In this document: positions 37,463-51,021 of the stretch, in pieces
Position numbering within the stretch: the first letter of the stretch is position 1
Layout: each line of letters starts with the position of its first letter
From: Dictyostelium discoideum
Lineage: Eukaryota
Assembly: GCA_000004695.1 (NCBI GenBank)
Contig: CM000152.2
Span: 2,688,001-2,752,000 of the forward strand
Direction: 5' to 3'
DNA: 64,000 nt
Translations under genes and position numbers: made by a program
Notes under the pieces: model-generated
What the model was told of the DNA's origin: nothing
The model's database searches: none
The model's input: only the letters and a program-made list of their open reading frames with translations

Positions 37463-38444
37463 ATGAACATCGGAGATGATAAAAGTGAAGTTGATGTAAT
37501 TATAGATTCATCATCAATAACTTTGAACAACAATGAAAGCTCAAATAACAATACAAATATTGGAGATGTTTTAAAATTTGAGAGTGGATTATATAATAGC
37601 TTCGAGTGTGAATTAATAAACCAAGTATTTAATTCAGTTCCAATAATGATGGGAGTGTGTGATTTATATGATAACTCAAATTCTGATTTCCAAATCCAAG
37701 ATTCTCAAAATTATGACTTTAAATTTGTAATCTCAAATAGATGTTAGTAGAATTAGTATATTTTTCAAATTTTAAAAAAAAAAAAATTAAAATAAATTAT
37801 TTATATTAACTATAGATATATATATAATAAATCAGGTTCATATGATAATTTACATATGTTTTTAGATAAAGGTAAAGGATTAGATGGACATTATTCAGCA
37901 AAAGAATTACATTTACCAGCATATTTTATAACATTATGGATTGAAAATATGTTAAGATCATTAAGAAAAAAGAAATCTGTTAAATTTATGTATCCTAGAT
38001 ATGTTGATAATGGTGAAACTCCATCATCTGATGATTTTTATTCACAAAAAATAGTTTGGAAAAAATCGACAATGTGTTTTATGGGTCAAGTTTTAGTTCC
38101 ACTTGATGATATTAATAGTAATAGTAATAATAATAGTAATCAAAAACAAACAGCATGTAGATTCTTTTTTACATCTGAAGAAGTTACAAAAGAGAAATTT
38201 AAAAAAGAGGAATTAATAAATGATTTTAAAAGTAGATTGGAAACATTGGAGAATAAAATTGATCAACGTGTTGATGAACGTATTGAAACTAGATTTAAAT
38301 ATGTATTGGAATCAATTCCTCAAATGGTTTGGGTAACTGATAATCATGGTAAAATTGAATTTGTAAATAGACAATGGAAAGATTATTTAGGTATTGATCA
38401 TTCTGGTCAATATTTAAATTGGGGTAGTATTTCTTACCAACAAC

Positions 38445-38510
<66 letters not shown>

Positions 38511-41071
38511 GTAATAATAAATCACCAATTATAAATTCACCAAATACAACATCACCAACAAATACCCAAATTGATTTTGATTCGCAATGGCATTATTCAT
38601 TAAAAGAAATGAAAAGATTTGAAATGGAAATATTATTACAAAGTATGTCAGGTGAATATAGGTGGTTTTTAGTTAGAGCCGAACCATATATTGAACCAAA
38701 TTTAGGTCATCCATCGTCACCATTACCTTCGATTATAAGTGCATGTGTTGATAATTGTGATATAATGACTGATGATAATAGTAGTGGTATTTTAATCAAT
38801 AATAATAATAATATTCAACAACCTTATTTAAATAATGATAATATATCAGGTGATAATGTAAATAATACACCAACATGTATTGATAACAATAATAATAATA
38901 TTGATGGTAGTAATAATAGTGTAAATTCAACAGGAACCGAACAATTGGATATTAAATGGATTGGTACATGTACAGATGTAAATGACCAAAAGACAGCACA
39001 AGATAGAATTGAGAATGCGGAGAAATCAAAAGCATTGTTTTTACAAACAATGTCACATGAAATGAGGACACCATTAGCAGGTATTATGGGTATTAATTCA
39101 TGGTTAAGTACATCATCACCACAATTGACTAGTGAACAATTGGATGGTTGCCATACTATTGATATGTGTGCCGAAGCATTGTTAGTATTAATTAATAATA
39201 TATTGGATCTAAGTAAATTGGAAGAGAATAAAATCATCCTAGAGGAAACTGAATTTTATCCAACTAAAATCGTTGAAGATTCAGTTGACATTTTATCATC
39301 ACAAGCTGAACAAAAGAAATTGGATATAATATTCCAATTGAAATATAATTGTTTATCTAAAGTAGTTGGTGACTTTTATAGAATTAGACAAGTTTTAACA
39401 AATTTAATTTCAAATTCTGTTAAATTTACACCAGCAAATGGTCAAATTATAGTTGGTTGTGAAATTTATCATGAAACAACACCATCAACTAGAAAACGTT
39501 CTTCATTGGATAGTATTGAAATTACAATACCTTGTAATCATAATAATAGTAATAATAGTAATAATAATCATAATCATAATAATAATAATAATAATAATAA
39601 TCATCTTAATTGCAGTGGTAGTTTTAATAATAATGGTTTTAATCATGGACATCATCATCATCATCACCACCACCATCATCACCACCATCATCATGATAAA
39701 CATTGTGATCAAAAAATAATTGTACCTGGCAAATATGGTAAATTATTATTTTGGGTAATTGATAATGGTATTGGTATACCGGAAGAAGGTAGAGAGAAAT
39801 TGTTTCAAACATTTTCCCAATATGATGCATCAACCACTCGAAAATATGGTGGTAGTGGTTTGGGTTTAGCAATTTCAAAAAGATTAACTCAATTACTTGG
39901 TGGTGATATTTGGTTTGAATCTCAAAAAGGTAAAGGTTCATCTTTCCATTTCTTAGTTGAAGTTTTCTTTCCAGATTATCCAACTATTTATAATCAACAA
40001 TTACAACAACAGCAACAACAACCAAATCTTCCTCATCAATTTAATATTGGTACATCAGCACCACAACCTATAGACAGTATATTAACATCATATAGTTCAA
40101 ACAATAGTAATAATAATATTAATAATAATAATATTACCACTTCTGTAATTTCACAATCACCCATAGTCGATAAATCAAATCTTTGTACATATATATTTTT
40201 ACTATCAACTAATCAAGTATTAGTAAATTCTTTATCACAATGGATAAATGAATGGATTGGAAATGCTACCAATAATAATAATAGTAATAATGATAACAAT
40301 AATAATAACACAACTTCTACAACTACCACAACTACAACTACAACAGCAACAATTAATACAAATATTAATCAACAAGTTAAAATATTATATGATATTGATT
40401 CAATTGAACAAATTTCAAATAGTGCAATACAAAGTGGAAAAAGATTAGATTTCCTTTTCCTTATTGAGGATACATTTTGGAATAATTATTCTGATAAAAT
40501 TTCAAATTCTCAAGAAATAATTGAATCTTTAATTAATCAAAATTATCAACAACAACAACAACAACAACAAGAACAAAGACAACAACATAATATTAAAAAT
40601 GTTATTTTAAGTTTTTCAAATTCAGCACAAATCTATGGAAATTCAATTATTTTGAAAAAACCTATAAAGTATTCCCCATTAAAAGATTGTATCTATACGA
40701 ATTTATTATACTTTAAATCAATTTATAGTGTTAATTCATTCGATGTAATAATTGCTACTCAAATGTCTTCTTCAGTTTCACCTTCTTCTTTATCATCCTC
40801 TCCTTCAATCCAAGGTTTAACAAATTCATCTTTAAGTATTAATAATATTAATATTAGTGGTAATAATAGTAACAACAATATCAATAATAATAATAATAAT
40901 AGTGGTAGTTCAACACCTAAAAAACTTAAAAAATCAAACTCTGATCAGTCAATACATTTCTCTCCAAGTTTAACTTCTTCATCATTACCAAGTCTAGATT
41001 TAAACAACAATAACAATATTAATAATAATAATAATATTAATAATAACAATAATATTAATAATAATAATAAC

Positions 41072-41116
<45 letters not shown>

Positions 41117-42226
41117 TTAAATCATTATAATAGTGATTCAATATTATCATCAGATTTATCACCACAACAACATCAATATCATCATCCAAATCCATTATTA
41201 GCAAATTATCAAAAGAAAAGAAGGAATTCCGTTGTAAATGATACAGATATACCATTGGAAATGACAGGAATAAGGTATCCTTTGAAAATTATGGTAGCTG
41301 AAGATAGTTTAGTTAATCAAAAAGTTGCATGTAGATTCCTCACTAAATTGGGTTACAAAAAAGAAGAGATCATTTTCGTTGTAAATGGTCAACAAGCCAT
41401 TGATCACATTGAAAATGTTGAAATGGTTGATGTAATTTTAATGGATATGCAAATGCCTGAAGTAGACGTATGTGTTTTTTTTCTATTTATTTTTTATTTT
41501 TTATTTTTTATTTTTTTTTTCGTTCTCACTTTCTATCCTTCTTTCAAATTTTTATTATTATTATTCTCTCCATTTTCTCTTTTTTTTTTTTTATTTTTTT
41601 TTATTTTTTTTTATTTTTATTTTATCTATCTTTTTTTTTTTTTTTTTTTTTTTGTAAAATCTAGATTTACATTCTCATTTTCCAAAAAAAAAAAAATAAA
41701 TAAACAAAATAAATAAATAAATTAATTAATTTATAATAACAAACAAACTATTATTTATTGTAGGGGTGCGAGGCTACGACTAGGATAAGGATGAGATATC
41801 CAACTACAGGTCCTCACATTATTGGGCTAACAGCAAATGCTTTCAATGAAGATAAAGATAAATGTTTATTGAGTGGAATGTGTCATGTAAGTTTTTTTTT
41901 TTTATTTTAATATTTTTATTGTTATTATTTTCCATTTCATATAATAACACCTTTGTGTGGCTCGAGTTTTTCCAATGGTTTGGATTTTTCCCCCATCCAA
42001 ATTCGTATTCGTCAAAAAAAAAAAAAAAAGAAATCAGCCAAAATCTGAAGATATTTTATTAATATTTTAAAAATTTTTTTTTTTCTTTTATTTTTTATTT
42101 TCCATTCCTTCTTTTTTTTTAATGTTAAAGTATCTTGCAAAGCCAGTAAAAATGGATATTCTAGCGGTTGAGTTAAAACGAGCGTGGTTGATCAGAAACA
42201 AGTTCAGAGTGTGTTTATGTGCAGTT

Positions 42227-42232
<6 letters not shown>
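37463..42232 (+). CDS. Hybrid sensor histidine kinase (PAS-HisKA-HATPase_c-receiver), 4 exons: join(37463..37742,37836..41467,41764..41886,42131..42232).
   Basis: H box MSHEMRTPLAGIMG. N/G1/G2 boxes (VIDNGIGIP, GGSGLGLAISKRL). Receiver KIMVAEDSLVNQ...DVILMDMQMPEVDG...LAKPV split by two introns. PAS-like WVTDNHGKIEFVNRQW. His15 and poly-N tracts. Confidence 0.85.
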
Positions 42233-42277
<45 letters not shown>

Positions 42278-43147
42278 TTTCAATAATTAAAGCGACCCCT
42301 TCGGCCAATTAACCAATACCTATTATTTATTTTATTTATTAATCAATCAACACTATTCAGATATATTCACAAAAACACAAAAAAAAAAAAAAAAAACACA
42401 AAAAAAAAAAAAAAAAAAAAAACTTTCCAAACTCCATAAAAATTGAACATTACCAAATAATTGTATATGATCCTATAAAATAAAATATAAATGAAATTTC
42501 TTTATTTACCCACTTAATATTTATGGTTTTTTTTTATTTATTTTTTTTTATTTTTATGTATATTTTTTTTTTTTTTTATCGTTAACACGAAGAAAATAAT
42601 ATTAATTTTGAAAAATTATTTTGATTAACTAATTATTTTTTTTTTACTTTTATTCTTATTTTATATTGAGTTTCTTTTAAAAAACGACTTCCTATCTTTG
42701 ATTGAGATTAAAAAAAAAAAAAAAAAAAGAATAATATTTCCTGATTTTCAAATGGCGACGGGGTATGTAAAAAAAAAAATAAAAAAAAAAATAAAAAAAA
42801 AAGAAAAAAAAAAAATTTGGATTTAAATAATATTAGAGTTGAGAATATGATTTTAAAAGCTTCAATTGAAAGGATTTTTTTTTTTTTTTTTTTTTCATTT
42901 GTGTATTTTTTATTTTTCCTCCCATACGTATATACTGGTATTATATTAAAAAAAAAAAAAAAATTATTTTAAAAAAAAAAAAGTGAATACTTATATTATT
43001 AGCCTGTAAAACTAAAAAAAATATTTGTACATATAAATATTTGTAAAAATAAATAATTTCAAAATTGTTTTTTTGTTTTCACCAAAAAGGTAGGTCAATT
43101 CAAGGGTGTAATTATTATTTCTTTTTTTTTATAAATGGAAATGTGTG

Positions 43148-43200
<53 letters not shown>

Positions 43201-43550
43201 TAAAATTATGTTTTTAATTTGTTGTTGTTAATTTAAATTAAAGTATATATTATGTAATGTTTTAAGAGGATTAAAATGAAAAAATCCTAAAAAAAGGAGT
43301 ATTAACAAGGAAAAAAAAATAATAATAAGAATAATTAAAAAAAAAAAAAAAAAAACATGATGTCACTGACAAATCTATATACATTTTTATAATAATATGG
43401 AAATTGTTAGGTTTTGTTGCATCATTACATAAAATCAATAATTGCACTTTCCAAATAAATATTCAATATTTTATTTAATTAATTAAATAAAAAAAATTTT
43501 ATAATAAATTTAATTGTTTTTTATTTTTAATTGTTTTTTTTTAATTTTTA

Positions 43551-43602
<52 letters not shown>

Positions 43603-44720
43603 TTTTTTTTTTTATTTTATTTTATTTTATTTTTTTTTTTTTTTTTTTTTTTGCCTCTATTAATTCAGGTTATAATCCTTTTGTACTTTGTTTTTTTTTA
43701 TTTTTTATTTTTTTATTTTTTTTAACTTTAAATTATTTTAAATATCTCAAAAAAAAATAAAAAGGTAATAAAAAATAGTTTTTTTTTTAATATTTATTTT
43801 TATTGATTATTTTTTATATATATTTATAAATTTATTCCATTTTTATTCTCCATCCTCATAGAATCCAGTAATCGTGTTATTGGAAGTAAAAAAAAGAATA
43901 TGACACATTCTATCACCATTATCACACAATATTATTTCAAAATGAAAATCAACAAGTTAACTTAACTCACACACCGGATTAAACCAACATAAAAATTATT
44001 AATTTAAATAAAAAAAAAAAAAAAACCGGTTATAATTATTGTTGTTTCAATATCATTGTTATGTTACCACTACTTTTTTTTTTTTTTTTTTTTTTTTTTA
44101 TTATTTTTTTTACTCTTTTTTTAATTTATTTTTTTATTTATTTATTTATTTTTACCCCACAATTTTCAACACCCCCATTATTATAATAAAATTATTATTA
44201 ATTAATTAGACTCCCAATCACATTTAAAGTACTCATTATTTTTTTTTTTTATAAAAAAAAAAATAAAAATTTTAATTAAATAAAAATAAAAATAAAAAAA
44301 AGAAGTTATTTTTTGTTTATGAATAGCCCCACCATTTTTTTATTTTTATGGCGTTATTATTTTATTGTTATTGTAGATTTTTCACACAGTGGTTTCTTGA
44401 TATCCTAATTCTTTTAATTTTGCCTTGTTTTTTAATTTTTAGATTTTTTATTTTTATTTTTTATTTTTTTAATTTTTTTAAATTAAAATTTTTTTTTTTT
44501 CTCTCTAATATCGCACCACTACAATCTTTTTTTATGGTAGTAATGTGTGACATCGCTGCAAATATCTTAAATAATTATTTGGCAAATAATTGTTATTGTA
44601 AAATAGCAATATAATAATAACAATAACATGTATTGGATACTTGTTTTTACAACTCCTAACCACCATCACCACAGTGGTACGATTTGAATTAAATAAATTA
44701 ATGTATCGTAACAATTAGAG

Positions 44721-44777
<57 letters not shown>

Positions 44778-45199
44778 ATAATAATATTAATAATAATTAA
44801 TAATTGTAGTGATATATGGTAACATAAATTAAATTTTATTTTATTTTATAAAAAATTTTATTAAATTTTATTTTATTTTTTAAAATTTTATTATTTAATT
44901 TTTTATTTTTTTTTTTGCCATATTATTTTTGATAGTAAAATTTAAATTTCAACAGAATATCATTTTGCATGTGATTTTGGGTTTAAGATCGAGATTGTTA
45001 CTTGGATCACTAAAATAAGGGCCTTCATTTAAAGAAAAAAAAAAAAAAAAAAAAACTGGTCAATCTATATATATGTATTGTATAATTTCCTTAAAATAAC
45101 TCTCAATAATTATAATTCCACTCACTTGTGCAAAACCCACAAACCACACTCACCCACAAAAAAAAAAACCCCACCAACACTCAAAGCAATAAATTCACA

Positions 45200-45245
<46 letters not shown>

Positions 45246-45497
45246 GAAAATTACAAGCCAAACTACACCACATCAACATGTTGACGATTTTAAACTAATA
45301 GCATGCTTATATGAAAGAGCTGTGCGATAATTAGTTTAAATGAGTGTTCATTTAAAAAAAAAAAAAAAAAAATAATTTATGTATAAAATTAATAAAAGAT
45401 GTGGTTAAAAAAAAAATATATGGTAACGCAACATCACACCCAAATCAAAATTCAAATTTTGTTGTGTGCTGTGTGCATACTTTAAATATTTTTTTAT

Positions 45498-45540
<43 letters not shown>

Positions 45541-46596
45541 ATATATTTTTTCTTTTTTAATTTGATTTTTCTTTTTTTTTTTTTTTTTTATTAAATTTTA
45601 CATTATGATAATTAAAACACTCACACCCAATGCATTAAAAAAGAAAAAAATCAAATATAATAATAAATAAATAAAAATTGAAAATATTTACATACTTAAC
45701 ACTCAACACTTTCTCATAAAAACAGAAATATTTCCTTTTTTTTTTTTTTTTTAATTTCCTTCGAAATATTTAATATCAGAATAATATCTTTTTTTTTTTA
45801 TTTTTTATTTTTATTGTTTTTTTTTAAAAAAAAATTCATCGCCTATTATTGCCACTATTATTCTTAGAAGGAGTGTTTTTTGCCCAATAATTAAATAAAA
45901 TTTTATGTACGACATCATTAAATAAAAAAATAAAAAAAAGAATTTTGTTTATTTTTTGATATACTTTTTTTTTTTTTTAATCTATTTTTAAATTCATTTT
46001 CCCATCACCCGAAATTGGAATTTTAAATTGTTATTTTTGTATATTTTCCATTTTATTTTTATTATTATTATTTTTATTTTTTTTTTTTTTTTTTTTTTTT
46101 AAATCGGTTCATTGACAAAAATATTTTATTAACCCAATTTTAAAATTGGAATTTTTTTTTTTTCAAAAAACTTTTAAATTTAGATCAACACGAAAGCAAA
46201 AAACTCTTTGCCAACTTAAAATCAAGAATCTCAAATAAAAAAAAAAATCGCTATTTTTCAACTTGTCACAAAGAATTTCTGGCTTTATCAAATTAATTTA
46301 ATTATTGTCAATCTCCATTCAAATAATTAACCGGTTGTGGTGTGTGGTGGTGTTATTTTTGCAATTTTTTTTAGTATCTTCTTTTGAATTTTTTTTTTTT
46401 TTTTTTTAAATTTTTTTTTTTTTTTTTATTTTTTTATTTTTTAATTAATTAGTATCGGAATTGTGGTATTTAAAAAAAATAAAAAATTATTTTTTTTTTT
46501 TTTTTAATTCCAATCAAATTTAAATCTTCTCATAATTAATCTAAAAAATCACAAAAAAGGTTTTTATATCACGATAAAAAAAAAAAAAAAAAAAAG

Positions 46597-46763
46597 ATGG
46601 CAAATTTTTTAATATATGATGGAGCTTCAACTTATAATCCATTTGATTATGAATATCCAATTAATAAAATAAATAATAACCCAAAAACATTTAAATTTCC
46701 TCCAAAACATTCAGGTAAGTTTATTTTTTAATATTTTTTTTTTTTTTTTTTATACATCTTACT

Positions 46764-46794
<31 letters not shown>

Positions 46795-47049
46795 CCTCTT
46801 TTAGTTTGTCTACCACAAAAAGATCATTTCATTGTTGAAAGACAATTGGCATTAGAAACAAAACAATATACATATAATTTCGAACATAATGTTAGAGTAG
46901 CCGGATTTGATACCCCAGTGGTTGGTTTACCACCATGTTTCAAATATATGGCACCAACATATGAATTACCAAAATGCGAACAATTAATGAATCCAAGTTT
47001 TGCTGCACATGGATTTAGTTTATTATTTTCAGATGTAATTATTTTTATA

Positions 47050-47093
<44 letters not shown>

Positions 47094-48770
47094 ATTTATT
47101 TTTTTATTATTAATTTTTTTTTTTTTTTTTAAAAGTTTCAAGCAAAAATTAATAATTATTTAACAAATAAAAAAAGTGAATATTTTGGATCAGTATCAGA
47201 ATATTTAAAAATGATAATGTTACCAAATCCACCAAAATTAATAGAAAATCAAACAATTGAAAGTTTAAATAAATTTGAATGGTTAAATGATAAAGAATTT
47301 GGTAGACAAAGATTACAAGGTTTAAATGCTGGTCAATTAATTAGGTTAACAAATGAAAAAGTTCAAGAATTAGATCTTTTTAATAAATTAAAATTTGAAA
47401 AGATGTTACCAACATTTAATATGATTCTTTCTAGTGAAGTTAATAGTAATTTCCAAAAGATGCTTGACAATGGTAATTTGTATATGGTTGATTATTCAAT
47501 ATTTGATGATGTAAATTATTATGAATCTGCCAAGAAAAGAGGTCGTTACATTTCAAGTCCAATAGCATTATTCTATATCAATGAAAATGATGAAAAACTA
47601 TATCCACTTTGTATAAAGATTTTACAAAACGATGAATTGTCACCAGTGTTTACACCTGCTTCCAATCCACCAGAATCTTGGATATTTGCTAAACTTTGGT
47701 TCCAATCTGCTGATGGTCAACATATGGAATTCTTTACTCATCTTTACGAATGTCATTTATTAGGTGAAGTTTTCACAATTGCGACCCATCGTCAACTTTC
47801 AACTTCTCATCCAATCTATCAATTGTTACATCCTCATTTCGATCTTTTACTTGATATAAATCATAGAGCAAGAGGTAATTTACTTTCAAGTTTTGGTCCA
47901 ATTGAATCTTTATTAGGTGGTGGTTCAATTGCTGCACTTCATTTAATTGTAAAATATCATAAAAATTTCATTTGGAGAGATAATACATTTTTAAATAGGT
48001 AATTATTTTTTAAATATATATATAAATATATTAAAAAAATTATATTAAATAAATAATATTAATATTTTTTTATTTTATTTTTAAATTTTAGATTAAAAAA
48101 AAATAATACATTAAATGATAATAAAAATCGAAAATATTATTTTAAAGAAGATGGTATTGAAATTTATAAAAATTTATTTGGATTTGTTCAAGATGTATTA
48201 TCTAAATTTTATACTAGTAAAGAAGATATTGAAAGAGATTTTGAATTACATTCATGGGTTGATGAAATAACAAGCGAACATGGTGGCACAATTAAAGGAT
48301 TAATTGAAGGTGAAAAATTAGTTGAACTAACTCAAGTGGTTGAATTAGTTACCGATATAATATTTCGTGTAACTGTTGAACATTCAATTGGTAATCATGG
48401 TCAATGGGATATGTTTGGTTTTACCCCAAATGTACCAGGCGCTCTCTATATGGATCCTCATAAAATCATTGAAGGTATACCAACAACATTTGAAATGATC
48501 ATAAATTCATTACCACCAAAGAAAGAAACTCAGGATCAAATTGCAATCACTCATCTTTTAGCAAATACTGATACTGGTTTACCAACTTTTATCTCTACAA
48601 TTTATGAATTTGAAAAAGATCAATCAGCTCCAAATTTTAAAGATATTTGTTCCTCCTATAGATCGAAAATGGAGCATTTATCAACAATTATCGAAAATCG
48701 TAACAAAAATGTAAATATGCCATACTCTTATATGGATCCTTCAAAAATTTGTGGTTCAATTTATATTTAA
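46597..48770 (+). CDS. Lipoxygenase-family protein with no PLAT domain, about 629 aa, 4 exons: join(46597..46714,46805..47034,47136..47998,48092..48770).
   Basis: EWLNDKEFGRQRLQGLNAGQLIRL (W..D..F..Q.L.G.N motif). FFTHLYECHLLGEVFTIATHRQLSTSHPIYQLLHPHFDLLLDINHRARGNLLS (LOX iron-ligand histidine helix signature). C-terminal ...CGSIYI (C-terminal Ile iron ligand). Confidence 0.8.
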
Positions 48771-49031: not shown

Positions 49032-49039
<8 letters not shown>

Positions 49040-51021
49040 AAGATTTTCTTAAAACTTTATATAAGAAATAAATTACAATTATTGTTGTAAATGAAATTGA
49101 AATAAATTCAGATAATAGAAAAGTTGATTTTTCACATTCTAAATAAGAATGTTTTGATGAATGAATTTTATGTATTACACTACTGATATTCATTGCAAGA
49201 TCAGAGAGTTGATTAATTCTATCATAGGCTTTAGAGTATTGATGAAGTTGTAAATTTGAATTGATTTGTGTTATCGTTGAATTAATACTCTTAAAGAAGG
49301 AATCGATTGATCTTACACTTGGATTATCGATTGAGTGAGTGAATTCTTCCCAAGTTTCATCATCACCAATATGATCCATTATACTCTTTAATGAATCAAT
49401 TGATGAAATTATATCAAAGTATAAATAATTTCTAATTGCTGAATCAGTTTGAGAGAATGATAAATCCTTTAAATTTGTAAACATATTACTTGGGTTATAT
49501 CCAATATTCCAAATGAAATTATTTTCAATTTGTTTGGAATTTTCATTAACAACTAAACTATTTGAACCAACCCCCCAAATTGTCATTAATAATGATTGTA
49601 ATATTGGTTTAGTTGCATCCATTGGATTAATTCCTAATTGTTTATCACATTGATAATCAATTTTCATTAATCCTGATTGAGTTTGAATACCAATTACCAT
49701 ATCAGGGAATGATACTGCCTTTTATTTTTTTTATAAAAAAAAAAAAAAAAAAAATTAATTTTAATTAATATATATATTTAAATTTAAAAAAAAAAAAAAA
49801 TTTAAAACTTACTTGATAATATCTATCTAATAATAATAATTCTTTATAAGAAATATCAAATAAAAAGATTGGAATAATTGTTTTTGAAGAATCATCTAAA
49901 TAAGATGGTATAAATTTTTGAATATGAACTTTAAACCAATGATGAAGTTCTTTTGAATCTAAAAATTGTTGAGTACCTTTTAATACTGAATGATGAGTTT
50001 TCAATGATGATTGTTTAATTTGAGCTGCATATAAATTATTTAATAATGATACTTCCCTCTTTGAAAATGTTATTCTTTGATTTGGTAATAATGGCATTTT
50101 CTCTCCTAATTGTTCCTTTATTGATTCCCAATCAAATTGTTCTGAAACTTCTAATTGTCCAACTAAATGATCATGTATCATAATTAATTGAATTTCTAAA
50201 TCAATCCAACCATATTTCTCTGGTATTTCATAAATTGGTGGTGATATTAATTGTCTAATTGTATGATAAAAAAATGTTGATATATCATATAATTTCTTTA
50301 AAAATAAAAAACAATAATAATAATAATAATGTTAATATATTTGTGAAGTATCTATGAATTATTTATTTATAAAAATATATACTTTTGTAAATCTTGAATT
50401 TGTATGTGGTAATTGTTGATTTGAAATTAAACCAGTACCCTTTGTTTGTGGACCATATGTACAAGTTTCAGCACCAATATCAATCCAAACATATCTACCA
50501 CTACCATCATTTGAATTATTTGGATTATTTGGTGATTCTGATTTTGATTGCCATAATTTAACATTACATAAATGGTCAACTACATTAATTCCATCTCTAT
50601 GTAATGTATTTATAGTTGTTGAATTCAATTGAGAATATGTATATTTTTCAATTGAATCTTCTCTATCATAAATTGTATTTATAATGTATACAACATATGA
50701 GATATGATTTTGTTGTTTATAATCTTGTGCTATAATATTATCAACTATATCGAATGGAACTAAATATTCATCCTGCTTTAAAGTGCTCCTATGTTGAAAT
50801 TCTGATATATACTTTTTAACTGATGCTTTAATCTCTTCATTTAAATTATGTGATCCTTCTGTTATATTAAATTTATGATTTTGTTTAATTAAATCAATAG
50901 TTTGTAATTTCTAAAAAAAAAATAAAAATAAAAATAAAAATTAGAGGTTTATTTTATATAAATTTTATTGTTGATTATAATAAAAATAATAATATAATAA
51001 TTAAAAATATTAATAATAATA

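Follow-up and report, generated by a model that had tools for sequence, protein, structure and literature searches.

The gene at positions 46597-48770 (+) of the window, a 64,000-nucleotide stretch of Dictyostelium discoideum DNA, very probably encodes a single-domain lipoxygenase (LOX) that lacks a PLAT domain, retains an intact metal center, is apparently single-copy, and is old in the dictyostelids. Its translation is 100% identical over 629 amino acids to DDB_G0279909 [Dictyostelium discoideum AX4], a protein titled "hypothetical protein" at NCBI and "Lipoxygenase domain-containing protein" in UniRef. The finding is already known to the extent that public annotation gives this gene as a lipoxygenase-domain protein and that a published LOX phylogeny used a D. 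discoideum LOX. We found no enzymatic, expression, or knockout study of DDB_G0279909 in the searchable literature.

Gene structure

As originally predicted, four exons joined at GT..AG boundaries, with donors GTAAG/GTAAT and acceptors TTTAG/AAAAG, give a single open coding sequence of 1890 nt, all on the forward strand. Exon 1 (46597..46714, 118 nt) is preceded by an A-run 5' of the ATG and followed by a GTAAG donor at 46715; it begins with Met1 and ends in phase 1, one base into codon 40, and its product is the variable N-terminal tail, which is modeled with low confidence. Intron 1 (46715..46804, 90 nt) has kept both its position and its phase in D. purpureum and Heterostelium album. Exon 2 (46805..47034, 230 nt, residues about 40-116) encodes the start of the LOX catalytic domain, a conserved VCLPQKDHFIVERQLALETKQYTYNF helix (46807-46878) whose motif is shared with bacterial LOXs and aligns with amphioxus LOX directly behind its PLAT, and in addition a conserved GLPPxFK..PTYxLP segment. 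An (ATT)n microsatellite lies within intron 2 (47035..47135, 101 nt), whose position is likewise kept in D. purpureum and H. album. Exon 3 (47136..47998, 863 nt) encodes residues 117-404 and exon 4 (48092..48770, 679 nt) encodes residues 405-629, followed by a TAA stop; intron 3 between them (47999..48091, 93 nt) is shared with D. purpureum and missing from H. album.

The three introns together have a GC content of 4.6%, and the GC3 of the coding sequence is 0.122 (12%), compared with 0.120 in the neighboring gene. The protein homologue search returned this protein as its lone D. discoideum match, which suggests that the gene is apparently single-copy in this species.

Catalytic domain and metal center

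The Pfam lipoxygenase family (PF00305) matched residues 157-612 with an E value of 5.9e-48 and 164.3 bits against a cut-off of 23.6, a significant family assignment by the profile check that had been proposed for this gene. A sequence search of the PDB matched 54 distinct LOX sequences, with E values down to 4.4e-51, including coral 8R-LOX, human 5-, 12-, and 15-LOX, and the LOXs of Cyanothece and Pseudomonas; alignments to the solved enzymes reach the C terminus. These matches lie far beyond chance and all the family signatures are present, confirming that the protein belongs to the lipoxygenases. The three motifs named in the original prediction were each recovered: the W165-L-N-D-K-E-F-G-R-Q-R-L-Q-G-L-N180 motif (47280-47327, exon 3), the His-rich helix H318-LYEC-H323-LL...ATHRQLSTSHPIYQLLHPH350, and a C-terminal end reading ...GSIYI629.

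We took as diagnostic of a lipoxygenase center a His-x4-His and a His-x3-Asn/His motif on two helices together with the carboxylate of a C-terminal Ile/Val. The protein has a His-x4-His helix, a His-x3-Asn helix, and a C-terminal Ile, thus keeping all five predicted metal ligands: His318 (47739-47741) and His323 (47754-47756) on the ligand helix encoded by exon 3, His501 and Asn505 (48381-48395) in exon 4, and Ile629 (48765-48767, also exon 4), whose carboxylate is the predicted fifth ligand. In an alignment of 14 LOX sequences, His318, His323, His501, Asn505, and Ala361 are invariant and Ile629 is nearly so. The product of DDB_G0279909 looks like an intact fatty-acid-oxidizing enzyme.

In the PDB sequence alignment, His318, His323, and Ala361 (47868-47870, exon 3) pair with His384, His389, and Gly427 of coral 8R-LOX, the last pair lying in the contexts ..INHRA361R.. 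and ..IDTIGR.., respectively; the ligand set as a whole falls on the ligand positions of the coral enzyme. According to Coffa and Brash 2004, an alanine rather than a glycine preceding the conserved arginine after the second ligand helix reportedly marks an S-specific LOX. Since Ala361 occupies this stereocontrol position, the enzyme is predicted to be of the S type, and its product to have S stereochemistry, whereas the coral enzyme has glycine there.

The best matches among solved structures, in fold as well as in sequence, were animal LOXs (coral 8R-LOX 2fnq/4qwt, human 5-LOX 3o8y, 15-LOX-2 4nre, and an amphioxus 8S-LOX-like enzyme), with sequence E values of about 1e-51 to 1e-47 and TM scores of 0.74 to 0.79. 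They share with the Dictyostelium enzyme the same five metal ligands and the same LPQxD opening of the catalytic domain but begin with a PLAT/C2-like beta-sandwich of about 110 amino acids, which the Dictyostelium enzyme lacks. Bacterial LOXs (CspLOX2 5med, P. aeruginosa LoxA 4g32, and those of Acidimicrobiia and Crocosphaera) are instead single-domain, PLAT-less proteins with an N-terminal helical extension, like the Dictyostelium LOX, which differs from them in its spliceosomal introns and eukaryotic relatives. The fungal Mn-LOXs of Magnaporthe (5fno) and Gaeumannomyces (5fx8) offer a eukaryotic precedent for the PLAT-less form with the same ligand set; they are, however, much more distant (E values of 5e-15 and 4e-9) and are secreted Mn enzymes, with neither Mn nor secretion indicated for the Dictyostelium protein. 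Kurakin et al. 2020 (Biochemistry Moscow 85:1048), on bacterial and protozoan lipoxygenases, reportedly covers protist LOXs.

The N terminus and the absence of PLAT

The protein lacks the N-terminal PLAT/LH2 beta-sandwich (PF01477) that defines two-domain animal and plant LOXs. Pfam gave no PF01477 match in the 629 residues even at an E value of ≤1, nor did a custom PLAT HMM run with --max at an E value of ≤10, although the same HMM recovered 65 PLAT-bearing LOXs among the homologues that we collected. Residues 1-164 searched alone against the PDB returned nothing significant, the best hit being an unrelated esterase (E value of 0.027), and the first beta strand of the AlphaFold2 model does not occur before residue 185. 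The custom HMM also found no PLAT in the four dictyostelid orthologues or in three environmental relatives. The claimed absence of PLAT is thereby upheld, and the competing idea that the closest homologues might be ordinary amoebozoan LOXs with degenerate PLAT domains fails, as the domain is absent rather than degenerate in all the dictyostelid orthologues.

The original prediction described an N terminus of roughly 140 amino acids. It has no PLAT character, as stated there, but it does not form a separate extra domain and consists mostly of LOX catalytic helices. When the protein is aligned by BLASTP with a Branchiostoma LOX, the match opens at residue 18 of the former and residue 112 of the latter, pairing VCLPQKD with V-LPQDD; PLAT covers residues 19-125 of the amphioxus enzyme, and the Dictyostelium alignment picks up directly after it. 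Residues 18-160 correspond to the first part of the catalytic domain both in an animal LOX and in full-length bacterial LOXs. The catalytic domain thus begins around residue 18-41 with what is the ordinary N-terminal helical part of a LOX domain, and the lineage-specific, poorly conserved tail comprises only about 20-40 residues.

Mini-LOXs of the Anabaena/Nostoc type are markedly shortened and lack the N-terminal helices of the catalytic domain. We rejected membership in this group, and with it the label given earlier, since the 629-residue Dictyostelium protein keeps the full set of these helices over residues 18-160 and is 63 residues longer at the N terminus than Cyanothece CspLOX2 (569 amino acids).

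An incomplete gene model, with a PLAT-encoding exon lying farther upstream, would also give an apparently PLAT-less protein. A gap of 4.9 kb without a listed open reading frame (ORF) of at least 100 amino acids separates the end of the histidine-kinase ORF at 41716 from the ATG at 46597, which seems long for Dictyostelium. Against this, six-frame translation of 41700-46620 gave the PLAT HMM nothing better than an E value of 0.2, and all ORFs there are ≤95 amino acids and of low complexity, in DNA of 7 to 28% GC. The first exon is also 118 nt in D. purpureum and shorter still in H. album, and the orthologues and the three environmental relatives are all without PLAT. We rejected the upstream exon on the six-frame search and regard such a missing exon as extremely improbable.

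Predicted structure

The AlphaFold2 model (pLDDT of 82, pTM of 0.85) is predicted to adopt the helical fold of the LOX catalytic domain. Foldseek matched it with a probability of 1.00 and TM scores of 0.74 to 0.79 to 15-LOX-2, 5-LOX, 8R-LOX, and CspLOX2; the fit to Pa-LOX was poorer, with an rmsd of about 9-10 Å. Confidence is low at residues 1-34 (pLDDT of <50) and rises to 85-88 at residues 41-60. Residues 64-135 are conserved among the dictyostelids yet reach a pLDDT of only 47-61, and form a dictyostelid-specific conserved segment by the presumed entrance of the substrate channel.

Dictyostelid orthologues

The proposed search for orthologues in other dictyostelids was positive in four further species, with full-length proteins at 54-70% identity in D. 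purpureum (DICPUDRAFT_32915), Heterostelium album (titled "putative arachidonate 12-lipoxygenase"), Acytostelium subglobosum (SAMD00019534_086440), and one EukProt dictyostelid. No PLAT is present in any of them, and they have the same metal ligands, VCLPQ start, and first two introns; variation is confined to intron 3 and the N-terminal 40 or so residues. The searchable literature yielded no biochemical characterization of any of these proteins. Exon lengths are the same in D. discoideum and D. purpureum (118/230/863/679) and are 19/230/1542 in H. album, so that exon 2 measures 230 nt in each of the three genomes compared. Judging from its occurrence in five species and from introns shared between group 4 and Heterostelium, the LOX gene is ancient in Dictyostelia; the ancestor that the sampled species share already had it, along with at least two of the introns.

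Relatives and origin

The nearest relatives outside the dictyostelids are environmental, PLAT-less sequences at 32-34% identity and 404-418 profile bits. The only environmental contig inspected, L083, is intron-less and of mixed base composition and has an AATAAA just 3' of the stop codon; from these features it looks like the transcript of an uncultured eukaryote. Two additional searches, one using a profile of the 14-sequence alignment and one using the environmental relative P0174, were both limited by their word index and added one further relative, P0188.

In a neighbor-joining (NJ) tree of 443 columns, which spans very deep divergences, both Dictyostelia and the grouping of Dictyostelia with two environmental PLAT-less sequences were recovered in 200 of 200 bootstraps. 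Deeper nodes reached 40/200 at most; the best tree sets the clade weakly beside PLAT-bearing eukaryotic LOXs and shows no grouping with bacterial sequences. The phylogenetic check thus gave a firm clade of dictyostelid and environmental enzymes but not the nesting within bacteria that a transfer would predict. This clade represents a distinct PLAT-less lineage that includes uncultured, probably eukaryotic organisms. Its deeper origin may lie either in a eukaryotic LOX that lost its PLAT domain or in a transfer of great age; an NJ tree of this size and span of divergence is a weak guide at that depth.

The original prediction raised the possibility of horizontal transfer from bacteria, which would require the gene to have gained introns and a host-like composition before the dictyostelid radiation. 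The PLAT-less architecture is indeed typical of bacterial LOXs, those of Acidimicrobiia can be aligned over almost the whole length (residues 36-629, 29% identity), and the top bacterial BLAST score (253 bits) slightly exceeds that of the best PLAT-bearing eukaryotic LOX (211 bits). Identity to bacterial LOXs (about 26-32%) nevertheless falls in the same range as that to animal LOXs (about 23-30%), leaving the two at near-equal distance, at about 29-32% for bacterial and about 27-30% for animal LOXs when the two are set side by side, and PLAT-less LOXs exist in fungi too, such as the Mn-LOXs 5fno and 5fx8. Bacterial LOXs also have the N-terminal LPQ helix and the LPPxxK segment; the LPQxD motif, however, also follows the PLAT domain in amphioxus LOX, and we therefore rejected it as a bacterial signature. 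LOX distribution across protists is patchy, as transfer could produce, but introns 1 and 2 recur in deeply separated dictyostelid groups, GC3 is indistinguishable from that of the neighboring gene, and the closest relatives are environmental, with L083 resembling a eukaryotic transcript. Given the NJ tree, the conserved introns, the host-like GC3, and the spread over five species, the claim of bacterial transfer is not supported, and we consider this origin unlikely.

Proposed mechanism and substrates

The preferred reading, a complete LOX catalytic domain behind a short disordered tail, would carry its metal at His318, His323, His501, Asn505, and the Ile629 carboxylate. By analogy with characterized LOXs, the active non-heme Fe(III)-OH (or Mn) would take a bis-allylic hydrogen from the 1Z,4Z-pentadiene of a polyunsaturated acyl chain, and antarafacial addition of O2 would yield a conjugated-diene hydroperoxide, with Ala361 predicted to direct S stereochemistry. 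Lacking a PLAT/C2-like domain, the enzyme would not be expected to be targeted to membranes through Ca2+ and PLAT in the manner of animal and plant LOXs. Inspection by eye shows no hydrophobic, signal-like stretch among residues 1-40, so the product is probably cytosolic.

The remark in the original prediction that oxylipin chemistry would be unexpected in Dictyostelium was fair and can be sharpened. According to a review, D. discoideum has 5,9-16:2 and 5,11-18:2, while Physarum, by contrast, makes linoleate. The reported D. discoideum dienes are non-methylene-interrupted and lack the bis-allylic methylene required by LOX; they are thus not classical LOX substrates, and the most likely substrates would be minor or exogenous (dietary or medium-derived) methylene-interrupted polyunsaturated fatty acids (PUFAs). 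The apparent lack of endogenous canonical substrates and a classical LOX role are in real tension.

This tension could mean that in vivo the enzyme does something other than classical PUFA dioxygenation and instead uses a non-canonical substrate, acts as a hydroperoxide isomerase or the like (eLOX3-like), or makes a developmental or cell-cell oxylipin signal from an unusual lipid. In addition to the missing bis-allylic CH2, the gene is under purifying selection in all five dictyostelids regardless, the dictyostelid-specific segment at residues 64-135 lies near the presumed channel entrance in a part of the model of low confidence, and published bioinformatic work ties microbial LOXs to multicellularity. 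All the catalytic residues of canonical dioxygenating LOXs are retained, however, amoebae ingest exogenous lipids and may so obtain canonical substrates, and nothing in the data points to an alternative reaction; we therefore consider non-classical chemistry improbable. Still more speculative, and quite improbable in our judgment, is the broader proposal that the dictyostelid LOXs and their uncultured PLAT-less relatives form a separate ancient eukaryotic lineage with such chemistry, oxidizing an unusual lipid or turning prey- or medium-derived PUFAs into an oxylipin signal for aggregation or fruiting-body development.

If the enzyme is active, it would represent an essentially unstudied oxylipin-forming capacity in a genetically tractable model of chemotaxis, phagocytosis, and facultative multicellularity. 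A conserved LOX in an organism whose reported fatty acids lack bis-allylic methylenes poses a concrete, testable question on the substrate and on the role of the product. It is otherwise an ordinary annotated member of its family, PLAT-less LOXs being already known from bacteria and fungi.

Neighboring genes

The 222-amino-acid ORF downstream of the LOX gene (49032-49700, -) had no Pfam match and no tblastn match at the D. purpureum locus. On the upstream side, the histidine-kinase gene shows conserved synteny with D. purpureum; at the position matching the downstream ORF, that species has a PF11912 gene.

Gene model and family assignment

The lipoxygenase (LOX) gene DDB_G0279909 occupies positions 46597-48770 of the forward strand as four open segments joined by three short introns of 90, 101 and 93 nt. 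These are extremely AT-rich (4.6% G+C together, in a window of 23.4% G+C), with GTAAG or GTAAT donors and AG acceptors. Eight of the enumerated donor/acceptor combinations kept the frame open, and we chose the model with canonical GTAAG/GTAAT donors and acceptors after T-rich tracts, which yields a 1890-nt CDS encoding 629 aa. This translation is identical (100%, full length) to [quoted passage not shown], named "Lipoxygenase domain-containing protein" in UniRef; the organism, coordinates and four-exon model of the original prediction therefore agree with the public annotation. Intron 2 carries a perfect (ATT)n microsatellite of ∼17 units at 47040-47092.

The proposed family membership was borne out, with residues 157-612 matching the Pfam Lipoxygenase HMM (PF00305) at E=5.9e-48 and 164 bits, well above the cut-off of 23.6. 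The motifs it was read from are all present: W165..D168..F171-G172.Q174.L176.G178.N180, H318-LYEC-H323...H350 and the C-terminal I629. In HMMER, the protein matched 54 distinct LOX sequences of solved structure, led by coral 8R-LOX (E=4.4e-51), with human 5-LOX, 11R-LOX, 12-LOX, 15-LOX-1 and 15-LOX-2 also at the top and lower matches to the Cyanothece enzyme CspLOX2 (4e-41), Pseudomonas LoxA (2e-30), plant LOXs (1e-30 to 1e-21) and fungal Mn-LOX (5e-15). An AlphaFold2 model built from a 14-sequence alignment (mean pLDDT 82.4, pTM 0.85) superposed in Foldseek on 15-LOX-2, 5-LOX, 8R-LOX and CspLOX2 with TM scores of 0.74-0.79.

His318, His323, His501 and Asn505 are invariant, and the C-terminal Ile nearly so, when the protein is aligned with LOXs from dictyostelids, cyanobacteria and other bacteria or metagenomes. 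The HMMER alignment places the Dictyostelium ligand residues on the known ligand positions of coral 8R-LOX, and Ala361 (INHRA-R) on the coral Gly of IDTIG-R, the Coffa-Brash stereocontrol residue. Alanine at the stereocontrol position goes with S-specific oxygenation, and Ala361 thus predicts this specificity for the Dictyostelium enzyme.

The N-terminus and the absence of a PLAT domain

The PLAT domain (PF01477) is the N-terminal β-sandwich of animal and plant LOXs, and its predicted absence here holds by every approach used. Pfam gave no PLAT match at E≤1. A custom HMM, made from PLAT regions of the homologues collected in this analysis, recognized 65 PLAT-bearing LOXs in that set and, with filters off and E≤10, none of the five dictyostelid LOXs or their environmental sisters. 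Residues 1-164 alone had no meaningful match among PDB sequences, and the predicted model has no β strand before residue 185. An upstream PLAT exon missed by the gene model is very unlikely: the gap between the preceding ORF and the LOX start codon (41717-46596, ∼4.9 kb, 7-28% G+C) has ORFs of at most 95 aa, all of them low-complexity, and gives only noise against the PLAT HMM, and the first exon is 118 nt in D. purpureum and 19 nt in Heterostelium.

BLASTP alignment with an amphioxus LOX, whose PLAT domain spans residues 19-125 in Pfam, begins at residue 18 of the Dictyostelium protein and residue 112 of the amphioxus one, pairing VCLPQKD with V-LPQDD. This LPQ-helix, like the LPPxxK segment after it, is also kept in bacterial LOXs, and residues 41-60 are the sole confidently modelled part of the N-terminus (pLDDT 85-88). 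The catalytic domain therefore starts at roughly residue 18-41; exon 1 encodes a variable tail, and intron 1 lies exactly at the boundary. The N-terminus of about 140 aa singled out originally does lack PLAT but is not a separate extra region, being mostly catalytic domain. Since that domain is complete, "mini-LOX" is not the right label, and at the N-terminus the protein is 63 residues longer than CspLOX2 (5med).

Orthologues, locus and evolutionary origin

Orthologues, all PLAT-less, were found in four other dictyostelids: D. purpureum (70% identity), a EukProt dictyostelid (59%), Heterostelium album (55%) and Acytostelium subglobosum (54%). Exon lengths are 118/230/863/679 in both D. purpureum and D. 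discoideum and 19/230/1542 in H. album; introns 1 and 2 are therefore common and intron 3 is Dictyostelium-specific. Upstream lies a hybrid histidine kinase gene (37856-41716, forward strand; 1286 aa with PAS, HisKA, HATPase_c and receiver domains), whose syntenic counterpart precedes the LOX gene of D. purpureum (53-70% identity, tblastn). The gap separating the kinase from the LOX gene in D. discoideum contains no tRNA and seems long for intergenic DNA in the compact Dictyostelium genome. Directly downstream, a reverse-strand ORF of 222 aa (49032-49700) has no Pfam match; the corresponding place in D. purpureum holds a 221-aa gene with PF11912 (CfaA_B_C), to which it showed no similarity in tblastn.

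When 1.84 billion representatives were searched exhaustively in HMMER with a dictyostelid LOX profile, 3211 homologues were recovered. The two closest from outside Dictyostelia are environmental (418 and 404 bits, 32-34% identity in BLAST), PLAT-less and have the LPQ start. The one environmental contig inspected, L083 (JGI sample 3300033542), is probably a eukaryotic transcript because it lacks introns, its base composition is mixed and an AATAAA closely follows the stop. L083 and the proteins P0174, P0175 and P0188 are uncultured PLAT-less LOXs that group robustly as sister to the dictyostelid LOXs (200/200). The N-terminus of P0175 is extended by a further ∼220 aa, in which Pfam identified no domain. 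At 285-300 bits, catalase-domain-LOX fusions, short bacterial LOXs and PLAT-bearing animal LOXs (nemertean, sponge, amphioxus) are interleaved.

A neighbor-joining tree (152 representatives, 443 catalytic-domain columns, 200 bootstraps) supported Dictyostelia, and Dictyostelia with the environmental pair, at 200/200 each, and every deeper node on the path at ≤40/200. The LOX gene is ancient in Dictyostelia, and its lineage, small and PLAT-less, includes uncultured relatives. The suggested horizontal transfer from bacteria found no positive evidence in the orthologues, the shared introns 1 and 2, the GC3 of the CDS (0.122 vs 0.120 for a neighbor gene) or the tree, which at its best places the dictyostelid clade, through deeper nodes of ≤40/200, next to PLAT-bearing eukaryotic sequences (including one from a diatom, Stephanopyxis) and apart from the 19 representatives labelled as bacterial. 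Pairwise BLAST slightly favors bacteria (Acidimicrobiia LOX, 253 bits, vs 211 for the best PLAT-bearing LOX). At greater depth, the gene would stem either from a eukaryotic LOX that lost its PLAT domain or from a very ancient transfer.

Predicted activity and substrate

Because purifying selection has conserved the ligands, the stereocontrol alanine and the LOX fold throughout the dictyostelid radiation, our default reading is a predicted active, S-specific non-haem-iron dioxygenase. By analogy with the family, it would abstract a bis-allylic hydrogen and insert O2 antarafacially to give a conjugated hydroperoxide, and it would do so without membrane targeting of the PLAT/Ca2+ type. The enzyme is probably cytosolic, judging solely from a reading of its first 40 residues, which include no hydrophobic signal-like stretch.

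LOXs without PLAT have been described from bacteria, cyanobacteria and fungi, and such enzymes are among the solved-sequence matches. The literature also includes bioinformatic studies of "bacterial and protozoan lipoxygenases" and multicellularity. Both NCBI and UniProt carry an annotation of the Dictyostelium gene, and a published LOX phylogeny includes a D. discoideum LOX (PMC10177866). Our literature search on DDB_G0279909 and Dictyostelium lipoxygenase found no biochemical or genetic study, and a modest interest remains in its unexplored substrate and function in a tractable model organism. [quoted passage not shown] These lack a bis-allylic methylene, in real tension with a conserved LOX. 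In vivo the enzyme therefore probably acts on a PUFA that is minor or exogenous, or on a non-classical substrate.

Fusion proteins among the bacterial-type homologues

Several of the closest bacterial-type homologues are fusions, found in metagenomic proteins (P0006-P0011 and P0029, 886-924 aa) and at the loci L011 (Thiohalocapsa halophila), L039 and L061. Their N-terminal domain of ∼370 aa had no Pfam match at E≤0.01 and is clearly related to coral catalase-related allene oxide synthase (AOS; 1u5u, E=1.6e-57), the AOS-like domain preceding a PLAT-less LOX. Judged by this similarity, an AOS-LOX-like fusion is present in purple sulfur bacteria and metagenomes.
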